64,000 nt of DNA from Enterobacteria phage Aplg8. Within the stretch, counting starts at the first letter, position 1; each line of letters opens with the position of its first letter. Positions 672-37,556 of the stretch are shown piece after piece. The notes under the pieces were generated by a model. It was not told where the DNA came from. It worked only from the letters and a program-made list of their open reading frames with translations, and searched no databases. Position numbers and translations under genes: made by a program. The DNA is taken from sequence record NC_054902.1; one strand, given 5' to 3'.

Positions 672-2251
672 GTAATAATACATATCAACACGTTTCTAAT
701 GAATCTCGTTATGTAAAATTTGATCCAACTGGTACAAATTTTCCGGAAGAGATTACTGATGTTCAGGCTGCTATAGCAGCCATTTCTCCTGCTGGCGTAA
801 ATGGAGTTCCTGATGCATCGTCAACAACAAAGGGAATTTTATTTCTTGCCACTGAACAGGAAGTTATAGATGGAACTAATAATACCAAAGCAGTTACACC
901 GGCAACGTTGGCAACAAGATTATCATATCCAAATGCTACCGAAGAAGTTTATGGACTTACACGTTATTCAACAGACGATGAAGCTGTAGCTGGTGTTAAT
1001 AATGAATCATCTATAACTCCGGCTAAATTTACTACAGCAATTAATCACATTTTTGATACACGAATTTCTTCTGAAAGTTCACTTGGTGTTATTAAGTTAT
1101 CATCTCTACCGCAAGCATTAGCTGGTGCAGATGATACTACTGCAATGACTCCATTAAAAACGCAGCAGTTAGCTATTAAATTAATTGCGCAAATTGCTCC
1201 TTCTGAAACCACAGCTACCGAATCGGACCAAGGTGTTGTTCAATTAGCAACAGTAGCGCAGGTTCGCCAGGGAACTTTAAGAGAAGGCTATGCAATTTCT
1301 CCTTATACGTTTATGAATTCATCTGCTACTGAAGAATATAAAGGCGTAATTAAATTAGGAACACAGTCAGAAGTTAACTCGAATAATGCTTCTGTTGCTG
1401 TTACTGGTGCAACTCTTAATGGTCGTGGTTCTACAACGTCAATGAGAGGCGTAGTTAAATTAACTACAACTGCCGGCTCACAGAGTGGAGGTGATGCTTC
1501 ATCAGCACTAGCTTGGAATGCTGACGTTATCCATCAAAGAGGCGGTCAAACTATTAATGGAACACTCCGCATTAATAACACGCTTACAATAGCTTCAGGT
1601 GGAGCAAATATTATCGGAACAGTTAACATGACCGGTGGTTATATTCAAGGTAAGCGTGTCGTAACACAAAATGAAATTGATAGAACTATTCCTGTCGGAG
1701 CTATTATGATGTGGGCCGCTGATAGTCTTCCTAGTGATGCTTGGCGTTTTTGCCACGGTGGAACTGTTTCAGCATCAGATTGTCCATTATATGCTTCTAG
1801 AATTGGAACAAGATACGGCGGAAGTTCATCAAATCCTGGATTACCTGATATGCGTGGTCTTTTTGTTCGCGGCTCTGGTCGTGGCTCTCACTTAACAAAT
1901 CCAAATGTTAATGGTAATGACCAGTTTGGTAAGCCTAGATTAGGTGTAGGTTGTACTGGTGGATATGTTGGTGAAGTACAGAAACAACAGATGTCTTATC
2001 ATAAACATGCTGGCGGATTTGGTGAGCATGATGATTCTGGAGCATTCGGTAATACCCGTAGATCAAATTTTGTTGGTACACGTAAAGGACTTGACTGGGA
2101 TAACCGTTCATACTTCACCAATGACGGATATGAAATTGACCCGGCATCACAACGAAATTCCAAATATACATTAAATCGTCCTGAATTAATTGGAAATGAA
2201 ACACGTCCATGGAACATTTCTTTAAACTACATAATTAAGGTAAAAGAATGA
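668..2251 (+). CDS. 12: short tail fibre protein gp12
   Basis: 527-aa ORF; N-terminal repeats of the T(x)GxxxLAT/V..VxxG..TxxAVTP type shared with long tail fibre proteins; C-terminal Gly/His-rich receptor-binding region; ATGA overlap with gp11. Confidence 0.92.
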
Positions 2252-3711
2252 CAGATATTGTACTGAATGACTTACCATTCGTTGACGGCCCTCCTGCGGA
2301 GGGCCAGAGCCGCATTTCCTGGATTAAAAACGGCGAAGAAATATTAGGAGCTGACACACAGTATGGAAGCGAAGGTTCAATGAATAGACCTACAGTTTCT
2401 GTACTAAGAAATGTTGAAGTTCTTGATAAAAACATTGGAATACTTAAAACATCTTTAGAAACCGCAAATAGTGATATTAAAACCATCCAGGGCATCTTAG
2501 ATGTATCTGGTGATATTGAAGCTTTAGCGCAAATAAGTATCAATAAAAAGGATATTTCTGACCTCAAAACGCTAACCAGTGAACATACAGAAATATTAAA
2601 TGGAACTAATAGTACTGTTGACAACATTCTTGCTGATATTGGTCCATTTAACTCCGAGGCCAACTCTGTATACAGAACAATCAGAAATGATTTACTGTGG
2701 ATAAAGCGTGAACTTGGACAATACACTGGTCAAGATATTAATGGTCTTCCTGTTGTAGGAAATCCTAGTAGTGGAATGAAGCATCGCATTATTAATAATA
2801 CTGATGTCATTACTTCACAGGGAATACGTTTAAGTGAATTAGAAACAAAATTTATTGAATCTGATGTAGGTTCTTTGACCATTGAAGTTGGTAATCTTCG
2901 CGAAGAGCTTGGACCGAAACCACCGTCTTTTTCACAGACTGTTTATAGTCGTTTAAATGAAATTGACACTAAACAGACAACAGTTGAGTCTGATATTAGT
3001 GCTATTAAGACCTCAATAGGATATCCAGGAAATAATTCGATTATTACGAGTGTTAATACAAACACTGATAATATTGCATCTATTAATTTAGAGCTAAATC
3101 AAAGTGGAGGTATTAAACAGCGTTTAACCGTTATTGAAACTTCTATTGGTTCAGATGATATTCCTTCGAGTATTAAAGGCCAAATCAAAGATAATACAAC
3201 TTCAATCGAATCTTTAAATGGAATCGTCGGTGAAAACACTTCATCTGGTTTAAGAGCGAATGTTTCGTGGTTAAACCAAATTGTTGGAACTGATTCTAGC
3301 GGTGGACAACCTTCTCCTCCTGGGTCTCTTTTAAACCGAGTTTCTACAATTGAAACTTCTGTTTCAGGCTTGAATAACGATGTTCAAAACCTACAAGTAG
3401 AGATTGGTAATAACAGCACAGGAATTAAAGGACAAGTTGTAGCGTTAAATACTTTAGTAAATGGAACTAATCCAAACGGTTCAACTGTTGAAGAACGCGG
3501 ATTAACCAATTCAATAAAAGCTAACGAAACCAACATTGCATCAGTTACACAAGAAGTGAATACCGCTAAAGGTAGTATATCTTCTCTGCAAGGTGATGTT
3601 CAAGCTCTCCAAGAAGCAGGTTATATTCCTGAAGCTCCAAAAGATGGCCAAGCTTACGTTCGTAAAGACGGCGAATGGGTATTACTTTCTACCTTTTTAT
3701 CACCAGCATAA
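2248..3711 (+). CDS. wac: fibritin (whisker antigen control), coiled-coil with C-terminal foldon
   Basis: 487-aa ORF; heptad-rich coiled-coil segments; C-terminus [27 protein letters not shown] is the foldon trimerisation motif. Confidence 0.95.
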
Positions 3712-3714
3712 CAT

Positions 3715-3730
3715 GGGGCCGCAAGGCCCC
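3715..3730 (+). terminator. GC-rich tetraloop hairpin GGGGCC-GCAA-GGCCCC after wac
   Basis: perfect 6-bp GC stem with GNRA-type loop, 4 nt after the wac stop, followed by T-rich run. Confidence 0.6.
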
Positions 3731-3743
3731 AAAGGATTTTTAA

Positions 3744-5445
<1,702 letters not shown>

Positions 5446-32784: not shown

Positions 32785-32803
32785 GGGGACCTTTCGGTCC
32801 CCC
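32785..32803. terminator. bidirectional hairpin GGGGACC-TTTC-GGTCCCC between gene 54 and the convergent 96-aa ORF
   Basis: 7-bp GC stem flanked by A/T runs. Confidence 0.65.
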
Positions 32804-32809
32804 ATATTT

Positions 32810-33100
32810 TTATTTACGGAATGAAATAAAAGCAGCAACTGAAGCAACAGAGGTTTCTTCAATATAAACCTCAATTTTTACCGGAGCTTCTGACTCAAAT
32901 TTACCTGTTACTACACCCTGGAAAATGCTTTCAGTCTGTTCTGGCTTTGAAAAATTTTCAGAAGGAAAAATTCCAAACTTTTTATCGGTTCCGAAAATTT
33001 TAATAAATTCATCGTAAACTGCTTCATTAAAAGCATTATCAGCGGGAATAACGCCTTCAACGACGAGTTCTTGACCTAAAAAGCGCAAAGAAGATTTCAT
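32810..33100 (-). CDS. hypothetical protein (T4 alt.-3 position), early-promoter driven
   Basis: 96-aa ORF; GAGGA Shine-Dalgarno; preceded by the 54-bp promoter-leader cassette. Confidence 0.65.
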   Translation of the reverse strand: MKSSLRFLGQELVVEGVIPADNAFNEAVYDEFIKIFGTDKKFGIFPSENFSKPEQTESIFQGVVTGKFESEAPVKIEVYIEETSVASVAAFISFRK

Positions 33101-33131: not shown

Positions 33132-33160
33132 ACTATAACACAACACGAGGGACTTGTAAA
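33132..33160 (-). promoter_or_regulatory. sigma70-type early promoter (GTTTACA-N17-TATAGT), copy A of duplicated cassette
   Basis: minus-strand reading TTTACA agtccctcgtgttgtgt TATAGT, followed by a leader with GAGGA. Confidence 0.6.
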
Positions 33161-35218
33161 CTACATTTTGAACTTTTTAGACATTCCGTTGATGTTAACC
33201 AAAGAAGCTAAGATTTGAGAAACTTCGTTTTCCTCTTCTTTTGATTCTTCTACAAGGAATTGATTAAATCCAGCCATTAGACGAACTTCACCAGTTTCCA
33301 TTAGATGGTCGCCATCATATACTGATTCCTCTAATTGTTCAGAAGGAGGAACGATTGTACCTTCGATTAGATACTTGTTATAAGCAGTTTCTTTCATAAA
33401 GTAAGTACTTACTTTATTAATCTTCAGTAAAATTCCACGTGGTAGAATAACTTCAGCTTCTGATGGAAATCCTGATAAATGACCCGGAACGATAACTTTG
33501 ATTCGCTCAGCTCCTTTAATTACCATACCCACGCTAGTTTCAGCATCTTCATTAGCATATGTAGAATGACTACCCATATGCATCAAATCTTCTGCATCAA
33601 CGGAACCTTCTCCTTCACCAGAAAATACTGCTCCGGAATCATCTAAGGCCATATAATTTTTACCATACTCACCAAAGATATTTGGTTTAAGTGATGTCGA
33701 TACGAAGTTCTTGAAATAGAACATTTTATTTTCAATGTTATGACGCAAAGTTTTAAAAGTAACTTCTTGTCCACGGTAAAGTGTAGTTCCTGGAGGAAGA
33801 ACTGAACCTTTAGCGAATGCAGAATCAAGCGTCTCAATATGTTTAATAGCTCGTTCCATATATTCTTCACGGGTAGAATCTGGTTTACCCAAAAGGAACG
33901 AGTTCATTTCAACATATGAATCTGCGCAATAATCTTCAATTACGTCAGATTCAGCCTGAGTTAATCCTTTTGGAGTTACTTCGGTGCTTGCATATTCATA
34001 CGCCTGAGCAGCGGATTCATCAATTAATTTATAAATGCCATTCATGACAAATTGAATAATAGCTGTCTTTTCATCTGGCGTAGCTTTAGAACCTTTAACT
34101 AAATCATTGACAATTTTCTTAATAACATCAAAGCTATTAGAAATATTAATGTCAGCAAGATCGCTTAAAATTTTATCAGTTTTATAATCAAAAAATTCTT
34201 TATTCTTTAAATATTCTTGAGAACTTTGATATGTTATATCGCTCTGCAACTTGATAGATGGATCACGTAAACGTGCATGGGCTAATGCAATATGATTTCG
34301 GAAGCTTTCTAGTTCATAATCGTTAGATTTAAAACGAGAAGCACTTCTCATACCACCGATAGCTCCTTTGCTGAAGTTTGAACCAATCTGAATAACGCCA
34401 GAGTTCATTGGTCCTTCTGCTTTATATACCGGAACTTTAGATTCAAACTCTTGATATTTCTTAGCAGCGAAGCTATCACCCTGAAGTGAAGCATCAACAG
34501 TAGAATATTGAGCTTGTGCTGCTAATCGACGACTAATTTTAGTTTTCTGAATAACAGCTTGATCCGTACGCTTATCATTTTCTAAAGCAATAGAAGCAGC
34601 AACTGCGACAGCTTTAGGAACAGCATTACCTGTTTTAACGTCTACATAAACATCACCAACCTTTGATTCAACTTTTGTGAATAACTCAGTTGAAATAGGA
34701 GGTACACCTGGAATGTCTTCTAAATTGGCATTTTTACGGTAAACCATAATATATGCATATTTCTTATCATAGTCCCAGATTTCCTTTAAAAGAACATATC
34801 GACCTGCTCCTTTAGTACGTACTAAACGGTCAGCAATAACTTGCATTTGACGAGCTGCGCCATTTGTTTTACTCTTTAGTACGCGGAATAAGCATGCATC
34901 AATTTTATACTGTTTCATTGTTTGAAGAGCAGTATCAAAAACAGCATTAATGACGCCAATTGGATTTCCACCTAAGTTTTTAAGTTTAACTAATGATAAT
35001 TTCTCGTTGACACCTATCATTACGATATGCATCATTTTGTCGCCTGGCTTAACGTTTTTATTCGTATCACCGCCAGAGGTGTATGTACAAAATCTAAATC
35101 CAGGAAGCACGCTTTCTTCACCGGCTTGAATAGCAAAAATTTGAGGTATTTTATGCTTAGGATTTAAGTTAACAACCGGCGCCGAAGCGCCGTCAAATAA
35201 TTCTGTAATAAGTTCCAT
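33161..35218 (-). CDS. Alt-like ADP-ribosyltransferase paralog (T4 alt.-2/alt.-1 position)
   Basis: 685-aa ORF; N-terminus MELITELFDGASAPVVNLNPKHKIPQIF parallels Alt; C-terminal R-S-E motifs (LYRGQ, FVSTSL, SEAEVILPRG). Confidence 0.8.
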   Translation of the reverse strand: MELITELFDGASAPVVNLNPKHKIPQIFAIQAGEESVLPGFRFCTYTSGGDTNKNVKPGDKMMHIVMIGVNEKLSLVKLKNLGGNPIGVINAVFDTALQTMKQYKIDACLFRVLKSKTNGAARQMQVIADRLVRTKGAGRYVLLKEIWDYDKKYAYIMVYRKNANLEDIPGVPPISTELFTKVESKVGDVYVDVKTGNAVPKAVAVAASIALENDKRTDQAVIQKTKISRRLAAQAQYSTVDASLQGDSFAAKKYQEFESKVPVYKAEGPMNSGVIQIGSNFSKGAIGGMRSASRFKSNDYELESFRNHIALAHARLRDPSIKLQSDITYQSSQEYLKNKEFFDYKTDKILSDLADINISNSFDVIKKIVNDLVKGSKATPDEKTAIIQFVMNGIYKLIDESAAQAYEYASTEVTPKGLTQAESDVIEDYCADSYVEMNSFLLGKPDSTREEYMERAIKHIETLDSAFAKGSVLPPGTTLYRGQEVTFKTLRHNIENKMFYFKNFVSTSLKPNIFGEYGKNYMALDDSGAVFSGEGEGSVDAEDLMHMGSHSTYANEDAETSVGMVIKGAERIKVIVPGHLSGFPSEAEVILPRGILLKINKVSTYFMKETAYNKYLIEGTIVPPSEQLEESVYDGDHLMETGEVRLMAGFNQFLVEESKEEENEVSQILASLVNINGMSKKFKM

Positions 35219-35221
35219 GAT

Positions 35222-37315
35222 TTATCCTTGAACGAACTTGTAAGGCATGTTTGTAATATCTATGCAAGACGCAATAATTCCAAGAGATGATTCTACTTTC
35301 TGTTTAACATTTGATGAAACAAATGATGCAAAGTCAACTCTGTCTTCTATTTCAATATCACCTGTCATTGCAACTACTTCGCCAGTTTCCATTAAACGGT
35401 CACCGTCATAAATTACCGATTCGGTGAGTTCTTCGGTGGTCATAACTTCAGCTTGAATGAGTTTTGTATTATTAGACGTGGTTCCGTCATTATTAGAAGC
35501 ATCAGTTATTTTATTAACTTTGACCATCAATCCGCGCGGTAGAATAACTTCGGCTTCTGTTGCTATTCCGAGACTTCCTGGATATACAACATTAACTTTA
35601 TGAGCTCCATCAATTGCCCATCCTATTTGAACTTTAACGTATTCAGGATTTTCTTTATACGCTCTTATTTCGTTTGGATTAATAGTTATTCCTTCTTCAT
35701 TTTTATCAACTGTCAATTCATTACGAGCTTCTGGTTCTAAAAGACCAATACCAGCATGTGTAATTCCAAAACGTCCAAAAATGATAGGAGTTAAAGAAGT
35801 AGATACAAAATTTCTGAAATAGAACACTTTATTTTTAACTAGTGCTTCGTATATAGGAGCAGTCATACTTTGAGCACGATAAACTGTGATGCCTTCCGGT
35901 ATGCGGTCACCATTTTCAAAAGCTGAATCTAAGTTATTTATAGCAGATTCAATTTCTTTTTCACTCATTACATCATATCGTTCTGGATTGTAACGACCTA
36001 AAAGAAGATTATTGATGTCAGTATATCCTGAACCGCAATATTCTCTAATGCCACGCTTTTGTGATGGAGTATATTTAGAACCATCGCGGGCAATAGTAAT
36101 ATCAATCATTGGACCAGCACCAATTCCAGAAAAACTGTAAATCATTCGTTTGAGGAATTTAGTTTTTGCTGCGTTCCAGGAATTTTTAGTTATTTCTTCC
36201 CAGACTTCATCTGGTTGTCCTTTACGATTTTTATTATGATTAGCAAGCCATTTATCTTTATAATCTTCAAAGAATTGATTTACAGCTGCTGCGTATTTCT
36301 CTAAACATTTTATTGAAGTAGTTGGTTCATTTTTAATTGCATTAAAAATTACTTCTTTAATTTTTTCTGAAACTTCACCGACTTGACTCATTGGAAAGAA
36401 TTTATAATCATAGTGAAGTTCATCTGCCGTTCCTTTAGCAATAATTTTTGCTGCCTTTGTTTTAGAAGCTAATGAATTAATTCCAATTTTCATTTCTTCT
36501 GCTTCGGGAATTAAAGGTGCAGTAGCTGGTTTATTAAAATTAGCTGCTGTAGATTCATACTTCTGGAATAATTCACTTTCAAATCTAGAAGATTCCAATG
36601 ACTGACTTTGTGCAATTGCTCTACGGGAAATTTTAACTTTAACGATTACGGCTTGGTCAGAACGTTTATCATTTTCTTGTGCAATAGATGCAGCAATTGC
36701 CTCATTTTTGGTTACTTGAGCTCCAGTATCTTTATTGATATAAACATCACCGACTTTCGATTCAACTTTAGTAAAGAGCTCGGTACTAATTTCCGGAACT
36801 CCTGGAATGTCTTCTAGTGATACATTTTTACGATGTATAAGAATATATGCATACTTTTTATCGTAATCCCAGAGTTCCTTAAGAAGGACGTATCTGCCAC
36901 CTGAACGACTGCGGATGAGTCTATCAGCAATAAGTTGAATTTGTCGAGCTTGACCGGCGGTTTTAGACTTAAGAATACGGAGCATACAGGCATCAATTTT
37001 ATACTGACGCATCGTTTGCATCGCAACAGTAAAAACTGAATTGATGTAATTAATTGGGCTTGGACCGAGACCTTTTAATTTAGCAATTGAACCTTTAGCA
37101 GTTAATGTAAAAGGAACAATATGCATCATTTTATCGCCCATCTTTAAATCGCGATTAGTATCACCTCCAGATGTATAGGTACACAAACGAAAGCCTGGTT
37201 GTTCAATTGCGTCATCAACATGAACTGAAAAAATTTGCGGTATTTTCTTCTTTGGATTTAAGTTTGTAATCGGAAGAGTAGTATCTTCGTCAAATAATTC
37301 TGTAATGAGTTCCAT
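35222..37315 (-). CDS. alt: Alt ADP-ribosyltransferase (packaged, modifies host RNA polymerase)
   Basis: 697 aa from the second Met (MELITELFDEDTTLP...); R-S-E motifs (VYRAQ, FVSTSL, TEAEVILPRG); late promoter upstream. Confidence 0.88.
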   Translation of the reverse strand: MELITELFDEDTTLPITNLNPKKKIPQIFSVHVDDAIEQPGFRLCTYTSGGDTNRDLKMGDKMMHIVPFTLTAKGSIAKLKGLGPSPINYINSVFTVAMQTMRQYKIDACMLRILKSKTAGQARQIQLIADRLIRSRSGGRYVLLKELWDYDKKYAYILIHRKNVSLEDIPGVPEISTELFTKVESKVGDVYINKDTGAQVTKNEAIAASIAQENDKRSDQAVIVKVKISRRAIAQSQSLESSRFESELFQKYESTAANFNKPATAPLIPEAEEMKIGINSLASKTKAAKIIAKGTADELHYDYKFFPMSQVGEVSEKIKEVIFNAIKNEPTTSIKCLEKYAAAVNQFFEDYKDKWLANHNKNRKGQPDEVWEEITKNSWNAAKTKFLKRMIYSFSGIGAGPMIDITIARDGSKYTPSQKRGIREYCGSGYTDINNLLLGRYNPERYDVMSEKEIESAINNLDSAFENGDRIPEGITVYRAQSMTAPIYEALVKNKVFYFRNFVSTSLTPIIFGRFGITHAGIGLLEPEARNELTVDKNEEGITINPNEIRAYKENPEYVKVQIGWAIDGAHKVNVVYPGSLGIATEAEVILPRGLMVKVNKITDASNNDGTTSNNTKLIQAEVMTTEELTESVIYDGDRLMETGEVVAMTGDIEIEDRVDFASFVSSNVKQKVESSLGIIASCIDITNMPYKFVQG

Positions 37316-37338
37316 CATATCCTCTCTAGTGTTTATTC

Positions 37339-37346
37339 TATTTATA
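37339..37346 (-). promoter_or_regulatory. T4-type late promoter TATAAATA (minus strand) upstream of alt
   Basis: plus-strand TATTTATA at 37339-37346, about 20 nt upstream of the alt start. Confidence 0.65.
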
Positions 37347-37351
37347 AAATT

Positions 37352-37369
37352 AAAGGCCCGAAGGCCTTT
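37352..37369 (-). terminator. hairpin AAAGGCC-CGAA-GGCCTTT downstream of the 62-aa ORF
   Basis: 7-bp stem; overlaps the stop of the 62-aa ORF. Confidence 0.55.
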
Positions 37370-37556
37370 AATAATCTATTGGTAAGAGAGTACGATATAT
37401 TTCAAACTTTGGACCTTTTTCATAGGCATCAAATGTTTCTGTGAATTTATTATAAGCATATGCATCTATAAATTCAATCATAATTTGTGATACAGAAGTA
37501 GAAACATCTCCACCTTCTTTTTGAGCCACGACAATTGTTTCTAAGTAAGCTTTCAT
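37368..37556 (-). CDS. small hypothetical protein between gene 30 and alt
   Basis: 62-aa ORF; start overlaps the gene 30 stop. Confidence 0.55.
   Translation of the reverse strand: MKAYLETIVVAQKEGGDVSTSVSQIMIEFIDAYAYNKFTETFDAYEKGPKFEIYRTLLPIDY

Follow-up and report, generated by a model that had tools for sequence, protein, structure and literature searches.

Tandem Alt-type ADP-ribosyltransferase genes with a shared chassis and divergent warheads in the T-even phage Aplg8

Among phage enzymes that are injected with the DNA to reprogram the host, Alt is the textbook case, and almost all of the work on it has been done in T4. The stretch analysed here, 64,000 nucleotides of Enterobacteria phage Aplg8 (NC_054902.1; hereafter the window), encodes two adjacent proteins of this type, termed AltA (the upstream copy, at the position of T4 alt) and AltB (the downstream copy), and the locus raises the question of whether both are injected enzymes and whether they act on the same host proteins. 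We assign a probability of roughly 0.7 to the reading that both are packaged, injected, arginine-specific mono-ADP-ribosyltransferases (ARTs), produced from one late transcript, trimmed at both ends by the prohead protease gp21, and directed at different targets. Expression, packaging, cleavage, enzymatic activity and the difference in targets are what we infer for AltA and AltB; gene structure, motifs, fold, selection, mosaic structure and distribution are the observations from which the argument proceeds.

The window is a segment of a Tequatrovirus (T-even) genome, and the 5 kb around the alt pair are 97-98% identical to the corresponding regions of AV122, wV7, RB14, RB51, RB68 and many others; in a nucleotide comparison, at least 80% of this 5-kb region was covered in 367 records. 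Genes 48 and 54 on the plus strand are followed by alt.-3, AltB, AltA, alt.1 and the DNA ligase gene 30, all on the minus strand (Table 1). This position, between gene 30/alt.1 and the baseplate gene 54 and on the strand opposite to the baseplate genes, is the one by which the T4 Alt family is recognized. A preliminary description of the locus, made from the sequence alone, had placed here two adjacent minus-strand genes of 685 and 697 codons, 3 bp apart, and the open reading frames (ORFs) agree: the gap consists of the nucleotides atc (35219-35221), between the AltA stop codon TAA (35222-35224) and the AltB ATG (35216-35218). An in-frame ATG at 37318, 3 nt further upstream, would extend AltA to 698 aa (35222..37318 in the ORF list). 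The start adopted here, the second ATG at 37315, matches the annotations of RB14, T2, T6 and T4 and follows a GAGG Shine-Dalgarno sequence (37321-37324) by 5 nt, the usual spacing. The counterpart of AltA is annotated as alt in RB14, T2, T6 and Bas37. AltB has a Shine-Dalgarno sequence of its own, which points to independent initiation of translation on a shared mRNA.

The two genes had been proposed to be tandem Alt-type paralogs, and this is supported by BLASTP (41% identity over the full length, E 4e-164), by the Pfam family PF03496 (ADPrib_exo_Tox; 129.9 bits for AltA and 71.5 bits for AltB, with a cut-off of 23.4), and by PHROG 802 ("Alt-like RNA polymerase ADP-ribosyltransferase"), which both proteins match end to end. 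A further family, PF26846 (Tevenvirinae_ADPRT), is on record for relatives that are 88-98% identical over the full length, although the local Pfam scan itself did not report it. AltB also matches phrog_23015 and phrog_15247, the families of the T4 alt.-1/alt.-2 remnants. The identity between AltA and AltB is unevenly distributed (AltA numbering): 68% over residues 1-238, 23% over 239-420, 38% over 421-620, and 37% over 621-697. A strong central divergence had been described at about residues 230-480; it is strong, but it peaks at 239-420, and the ART domain has also diverged well. Both N-termini (MELITELFDEDTTLPITNLNPKKKIPQIF in AltA and MELITELFDGASAPVVNLNPKHKIPQIF in AltB) begin with MELITELFD, as had been noted, while the TNLNPK ascribed to both reads VNLNPK in the downstream copy, a trivial slip.

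The claim that both proteins keep the R-S-E signature of ARTs holds on alignment, with no catalytic residue lost: the Arg, both Ser of the S-T-S motif and both Glu of the E-x-E motif are invariant in 23 family members (43-97% identity to AltB). A phmmer search of PDB sequences with full-length AltB gave no match, and comparison with known structures needed a family profile and fold searches. In the profile built from the 23-member alignment, "lyRgq" aligns to the catalytic "VYRGDD" of a C3-type enzyme, and "eEaEviLPRG" aligns to "QYELLLPRN" of C3 and "EYEVLI" of BECa; these hidden Markov model alignments to PDB chains leave out the S-T-S segment, which is placed by its motif and by the fold matches. 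An E-x-E rather than a Q-x-E motif is the arginine-specific signature among C3/VIP2-type ARTs. In the ADP-ribosylating turn-turn (ARTT) loop, AltA has GIATEAE, AltB has GFPSEAE, and T4 Alt has APSNEME, and AltB is further distinguished by an acidic insertion of ∼40 residues between the S-T-S and E-x-E motifs.

Pairwise alignment and AlphaFold modeling had been suggested as checks; the former confirms the paralogy, and the models (predicted local distance difference test scores of 76 and 75) have one layout. This consists of ∼10 disordered N-terminal residues, an alpha/beta domain (∼15-195), an all-helical region (∼200-468), an ART beta-sandwich (∼478-625), and a C-terminal tail of low confidence. 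The ART beta-sandwich with an N-terminal helical subdomain is present in the models of both window proteins, and the closest structure in the fold searches is the NAD+-arginine ART Vis; no solved Alt structure was found in the PDB sequence and fold searches. Judged by family, motif and predicted fold, both proteins are C3/Vis-type R-S-E mono-ARTs. The C3-like and binary-toxin ARTs (Vis toxin, C3bot, CDTa, iota Ia, VIP2, Certhrax) differ from them in being secreted bacterial toxins with eukaryotic or small-molecule targets; these are 14-23% identical, lack phage packaging modules, and mostly have a shorter spacing from STS to ExE.

T4 Alt is a prohead-core protein (∼40 copies per head) that is cleaved by gp21, non-essential, and ejected with the DNA (PMC9026906), and mass spectrometry has shown cleavage at I-T-E6 and at L-T-E619, with the loss of 6 and 63 residues, respectively (PMC5694885). 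Mass spectrometry has also revealed an Alt homolog in the virions of MP1, a distant Tevenvirinae phage (PMC5384007). Prohead-protease cleavage of the N-terminus had been suggested for the window proteins, and the I-T-E6 site is present in both, although only the first 6 residues would be removed. The conserved block behind this site is more than a short targeting peptide, consisting of a folded alpha/beta domain of ∼190 residues with helices extending to residue ∼238; it is the presumed prohead-core anchoring module, by analogy. The preliminary description missed a conserved C-terminal gp21 site in both paralogs, and the Glu of this site and E6 are invariant across the 23 sequences. The predicted mature forms are 70.1 kDa for AltA and 69.2 kDa for AltB.

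The C-terminal propeptides would comprise residues 633-697 of AltA (35225-35419) and 632-685 of AltB (33164-33325). In the AlphaFold models, disorder is found at residues 1-10/11 in both proteins and, toward the C-terminus, from residue 630 in AltB, at the predicted cleavage site, and from 652 in AltA, in which the first part of the predicted propeptide (633-651) is modeled with moderate confidence. A nearly invariant YDGDxLMETGE lies just after the C-terminal site, suggesting that the propeptide itself is constrained, and the terminal KF is conserved. The propeptides are acidic (isoelectric point of 4.2-4.6) and the mature bodies neutral to basic. Possible roles of the C-terminal propeptide are to attach the protein to the scaffolding core or to hold the ART inactive until maturation.

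A late promoter had been placed upstream of the first gene, and a T4-type element, TATAAATA, is found there at 37339-37346; the same element precedes alt in T4. This sequence occurs 18 times in the window, vs. 8.9 expected by chance. A terminator scan predicted no minus-strand terminator from the late promoter to the hairpin at 32785-32802, including between AltA and AltB, in agreement with the earlier view that the second gene appears co-transcribed; this hairpin is likely the 3′ end of the alt transcription unit. A second perfect copy of TATAAATA lies on the minus strand within the AltA coding sequence (35935-35942, codons A-I-N-N), ∼717 nt upstream of the AltB start. The T4 allele has GCTATTGATAAT at this site, and the element is specific to the AltA allele; it could be a chance match, or an internal late promoter from which AltB would be transcribed separately.

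Comparison of the two genes indicates an ancient duplication, since synonymous sites are saturated throughout (proportion of synonymous differences, pS, 0.57-0.71). The ratio of non-synonymous to synonymous substitution rates (dN/dS) is 0.19 in the N-terminal module and 0.55-0.63 elsewhere, and the low value at saturated dS suggests that the shared N-terminus has been held by selection at the protein level. Recent gene conversion in this genome was considered as the cause of the similar N-termini and rejected, because the N-terminal synonymous sites are saturated as well. Between AltB and its counterpart in RB14 or T2 there are 52-64 synonymous and 11-12 non-synonymous differences (dN/dS 0.05-0.06), as expected of a working gene under strong purifying selection; the same comparisons for AltA give 0.02-0.08.

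The upstream copy has its own mosaic history. In DNA alignment, AltA and T4 alt (positions 2501-4549 in sequence L002, from T4) are ∼97% identical up to codon ∼247, drop abruptly to ∼55%, and return to >95% right after EVILPRG; the breaks are sharp (alignment columns ∼770 and ∼1815), with recombination-like boundaries. Within this variable "warhead" cassette, the AltA and T4 Alt proteins share about 46% identity. By this comparison AltA is not the T4 Alt allele, and the upstream slot has two alleles, a T4-type and a window-type: at ≥90% identity, 317 records contain the AltA-type segment and 174 the T4-type. AltB combines with either, as AR1 has AltB (98.4%) next to a T4-type Alt (94.5%), and Sf21 and fFiEco06 have the second alt place beside a T4-type Alt. 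The two alleles have been compared functionally in one plating assay, in which T4 alt is reported to be needed to evade Mokosh type I and plating was restored by T4 Alt but not by Bas37 Alt (bioRxiv 10.1101/2025.11.20.689424). Bas37 Alt (bas37_0033) is AltA-type, with a variable module 96% identical to that of the window. The failure to interchange shows that different warheads are not equivalent and links Alt to counter-defence; it also lends indirect support to the inference, already drawn in the preliminary description, of different substrates.

Recombination has also acted between the two slots in other phages. ECML-134 (NC_025449), vB_EcoM_SCS4 and Yersinia phage PST have only one alt gene between alt.1 and alt.-3, and it is a hybrid (positions 2001-4061 in sequence L008, from ECML-134, and also 5001-7055 in L006): it is AltA-type over its first ∼157 residues and AltB-type beyond, and the switch falls within GRYVLLKE.WDYDKKYAYI, a stretch common to both paralogs. 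Further hybrid breakpoints, near residues 55, 105, 195 and 225, were found in metagenomic contigs. Such genes point to unequal recombination between the tandem paralogs. The possibility that the hybrids in Logan contigs arose as assembly chimeras was rejected, as the same single hybrid gene is present in the complete genomes of ECML-134, SCS4 and PST. As sole alt genes, the hybrids indicate that an AltB warhead works on an Alt chassis and can be the only Alt of a viable phage. Taken at the level of sequence, the locus behaves as a conserved chassis (N-terminal module and C-terminal tail) that carries exchangeable warheads in one or two slots.

Under the proposed mechanism, gp55-dependent late transcription would run from the late promoter across AltA and AltB, and probably alt.-3, as far as the hairpin beyond, and AltA and AltB would each be translated from their own Shine-Dalgarno sequence. 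The N-terminal module, and perhaps the acidic C-terminal tail as well, would place each protein in the prohead scaffolding core, where gp21 would trim both after I-T-E6 and after L-x-E (E632 in AltA, E631 in AltB) to ∼70 and ∼69 kDa. On infection, both would enter with the DNA and use NAD+ to ADP-ribosylate arginines of host proteins before phage gene expression. T4 Alt modifies Arg265 of the RNA polymerase alpha subunit and other proteins (PMC2988021). With a shared chassis and chemistry and different warheads (helical center, ART surface and ARTT loop), AltA and AltB most likely have different host targets, which would widen early host takeover and/or counter-defence.

Several points weigh against this interpretation. 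AltB scores lower than AltA on the Pfam ART model (71 vs. 130 bits), and this score together with the insertion between STS and ExE may reflect an altered chemistry or substrate class. The capsid-targeting role of the Alt N-terminus is drawn from reviews and from analogy with internal proteins. Literature searches found no report of AltB as a virion protein, of its cleavage, or of an activity or target, and Alt2 of Bas37 (bas37_0032) is unmentioned in the main text of the HIDEN-SEQ preprint and so has no phenotype on record. Finally, T4 lost AltB by frameshift and deletion at no obvious laboratory cost, which suggests that AltB is dispensable under some conditions.

The best-surviving alternative holds that AltB is a redundant copy, serving as dosage or back-up, that is packaged and active on the same main targets as AltA (e.g., RNA polymerase alpha Arg265). 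The chassis, catalytic motifs and processing sites are indeed the same in both proteins, T4 and the single-gene hybrid phages (ECML-134, PST) do well with one copy, and T4 Alt itself is promiscuous (PMC2988021). Nevertheless, we consider redundancy unlikely: identity falls to 23% in the helical center and 38% in the ART domain, the ARTT loops differ, dS is saturated, and long purifying selection on both copies is contrary to the prediction of simple redundancy. Even the two alleles of the upstream slot were not interchangeable in the one assay available.

The processing sites also bear on whether AltB is injected at all. It could be a late protein that acts in the producing cell, or one that enters proheads and is degraded there by gp21, and it does contain two additional L/I-x-E motifs, LIE 617 near the C-terminal end of the ART domain and LVE 655 in the tail. 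gp21 usually does not cleave such motifs inside folded domains, which counts against degradation. Given that selection has conserved the N-terminal module together with the two Alt processing sites, and that the hybrid phages use an AltB body on an Alt N-terminus as their only Alt, a non-injected AltB is improbable.

A shift of AltB to another substrate class (RNA, DNA, a small molecule, or the attachment of NAD-capped RNA, as with T4 ModB) can likewise be given little weight, since AltB retains the full R-S-ExE set typical of arginine-specific protein ARTs, its closest structure is Vis, and its warhead offers no specific hint of nucleic-acid binding. What speaks for such a shift is that ARTs of this superfamily change substrate class repeatedly, as illustrated by RNAylation by ModB (PMC10468400) and by CmdT, an mRNA ART (PMC11618068), together with the distinct 40-residue acidic insertion of AltB. 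The idea that AltB is non-functional or is decaying into a pseudogene, like the frameshifted and truncated remnants that are all T4 carries, is effectively refuted by an intact 685-codon ORF here and in ∼400 records, a dN/dS of 0.05-0.06, and invariant catalytic residues.

The preferred reading, of two injected ARTs with different targets, can be set against the systems already described. Compared with T4 Alt, the locus between gene 30/alt.1 and gene 54 and the late promoter are the same, AltA is 99% identical over its N-terminal 245 residues and about 95% identical over its C-terminal ∼80, and the R-STS-ExE motifs and the ITE-6 and L-x-E processing sites are shared with both AltA and AltB. 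In contrast, neither window protein carries the T4 warhead, and AltB is 41-43% identical overall. The T4 ORFs alt.-1 (61 aa) and alt.-2 (67 aa) are near-identical to AltB residues 1-54 and 62-116, and represent frameshifted remnants of a gene that is intact here; the T4 record states that they "reflect an old duplication of the first part of gene alt". T4 ModA and ModB belong to the same Alt/VIP2 clade of R-S-E ARTs (PMC5512222), and ModA likewise modifies RNA polymerase alpha Arg265 (PMC2988021), but these are early, non-packaged proteins of ∼200 aa without the N-terminal module, helical center and propeptides. The small injected proteins with a capsid-targeting sequence (CTS) resemble Alt in that a conserved, gp21-cleaved packaging signal is fused to variable host-takeover or anti-defence payloads, which vary among close relatives. 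They differ in being non-enzymatic, with a 10-residue CTS (MKTYQEFIAE type) and no sequence similarity to Alt, which has a much larger conserved N-terminal module and a C-terminal propeptide. A paper on injected anti-restriction proteins (PMC12373910) makes no mention of Alt.

The tandem arrangement itself is not new: it is already annotated in hundreds of genomes, and the window genes are 98-99% identical to annotated ones. By tblastn, 400 phage records contain AltB at ≥90% identity, among them those of T2 and T6, which have the same pair of 2094 and 2058 nt with a 3-nt gap. The second alt gene of RB14, RB51, T2, T6, wV7, AR1 and Bas37 is AltB (98-99.6% identical to the deposited full-length copies, from which nothing sets it apart), annotated as "Alt-like RNA polymerase ADP-ribosyltransferase" (RefSeq), "alt.-2" (RB14, RB51) or "ADP-ribosyltransferase Alt2" (Bas37/KarlGJung). 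Of the Tequatrovirus records that contain an alt gene in the phage collection searched, ∼3/4 have a second, intact ART as well. Duplications of alt were listed earlier for several T4-like phages (Nolan et al., 2006, PMC1524935); literature searches found neither a functional study of the second Alt copy nor usable virion proteomics of two-copy T-even phages.

Beyond the two-enzyme reading, a wider and tentative possibility is that the locus is a two-slot cassette of injected ART warheads, set in a conserved packaging chassis and shuffled by recombination between slots and between phages. Each warhead would act against a different host defence or takeover target, with Alt2 as a dedicated counter-defence ART directed at an E. 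coli immunity system, and the combination would help to set host range. The T4- and RB14-type alleles of the first slot, the presence, absence or fusion of AltB in the second, and the crossovers in conserved stretches fit this possibility.

The genes and signals on either side of the pair are summarized with its features in Table 1. A GC-rich hairpin directly after the alt.1 stop codon lies 5 nt before the late promoter and is conserved in T4; the consensus terminator scan did not call it, but it is probably where the early transcript of gene 30/alt.1 ends. The small gene alt.1 itself (62 aa, 37368-37556, minus strand) has a match to the Pfam family PF24647 "Phage_blade" (E 7.5e-29) and shares 4 nt with the end of the DNA ligase gene. 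At the other end, alt.-3 could be reached by read-through from the late promoter and may in addition have its own early-type promoter, a promoter-like GTTTAC-17-TATAGT with TG before TATAGT (33160..33132, minus strand). The sigma-70 promoter scan of the region was at chance level (20 sites found vs. 19.3 expected), and the alt.-3 site, which also fits the T4 early -35 consensus GTTTAC, is the only one used here. In T4, C-terminal extensions of Alt.-3 lead to escape from the CmdTAC defence by blocking degradation of CmdA (PMC11618068).

Table 1. Positions of the alt genes, their predicted functional sites and the flanking signals in the window
Feature	Position	Strand	Basis	Remark
AltA, 697-aa Alt-type ADP-ribosyltransferase	35222..37315	-	ORF; PF03496 E 1e-37; phrog_802 E 3e-272	stop included
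AltB, 685-aa second Alt-type ADP-ribosyltransferase	33161..35218	-	ORF; PF03496 E 7.5e-20; phrog_802 E 6e-256	
AltB Shine-Dalgarno AAGGA	35225..35229	-	read from sequence caaggaTAAatcATG	6 nt before AltB ATG; abuts AltA stop codon
AltA catalytic Arg480 (Y479-R480-A-Q)	35876..35878	-	alignment; profile match to C3 YRG	
AltA S505-T506-S507 (FVSTSL 503-508)	35795..35803	-	alignment	
AltA E587-A-E589 (T-E-A-E-VILPRG)	35549..35557	-	alignment and profile	E-x-E in ARTT loop
AltB catalytic Arg482 (Y481-R482-G-Q)	33773..33775	-	alignment and profile	
AltB S507-T508-S509 (FVSTSL 505-510)	33692..33700	-	alignment	
AltB E587-A-E589 (S-E-A-E-VILPRG)	33452..33460	-	alignment and profile	E-x-E
AltA variable warhead cassette, ∼residues 247-595	35531..36577	-	DNA alignment with T4	helical center and ART core up to EVILPRG
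AltA conserved N-terminal module, mature residues 7-238	36602..37297	-		alpha/beta domain and first helices; 99% to T4 Alt, 68% to AltB
AltB conserved N-terminal module, mature residues 7-238	34505..35200	-	alignment, dN/dS, fold	PF26846 in relatives
AltA I4-T5-E6, predicted N-terminal gp21 site	37298..37306	-	alignment	T4 ITE-6
AltB I4-T5-E6, predicted N-terminal gp21 site	35201..35209	-	alignment	
AltA L630-T631-E632, predicted C-terminal gp21 site	35420..35428	-	homologous to T4 LTE-619	would remove 65 residues
AltB L629-E630-E631, predicted C-terminal gp21 site	33326..33334	-		E631 invariant; would remove 54 residues
Late promoter, T4-type TATAAATA	37339..37346	-	motif scan	upstream of AltA; gp55-type
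Hairpin AAAGGCC-TTCG-GGCCTTT, then AATTTT	37352..37369	-	read from sequence	GC-rich; directly after alt.1 stop codon
alt.-3, 96 aa, DUF5498	32810..33100	-	ORF and Pfam	directly follows AltB; last gene before terminator
Bidirectional intrinsic terminator hairpin	32785..32802	.	terminator scan	between gene 54 (+) and alt.-3 (-)

For the T-even phages, these comparisons make T4 the exception, with its second copy lost and a warhead unlike that of most relatives. The remaining interest of the locus lies in the function of the second injected ART and of the non-T4 warheads. Alt alleles are now linked to defence evasion (Mokosh type I, MazF), and a two-gene mosaic locus of this kind is a place to look for allele-specific determinants of counter-defence and host range. 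The layout of a chassis with a warhead points, in addition, to a way of loading foreign enzymes into T-even heads.

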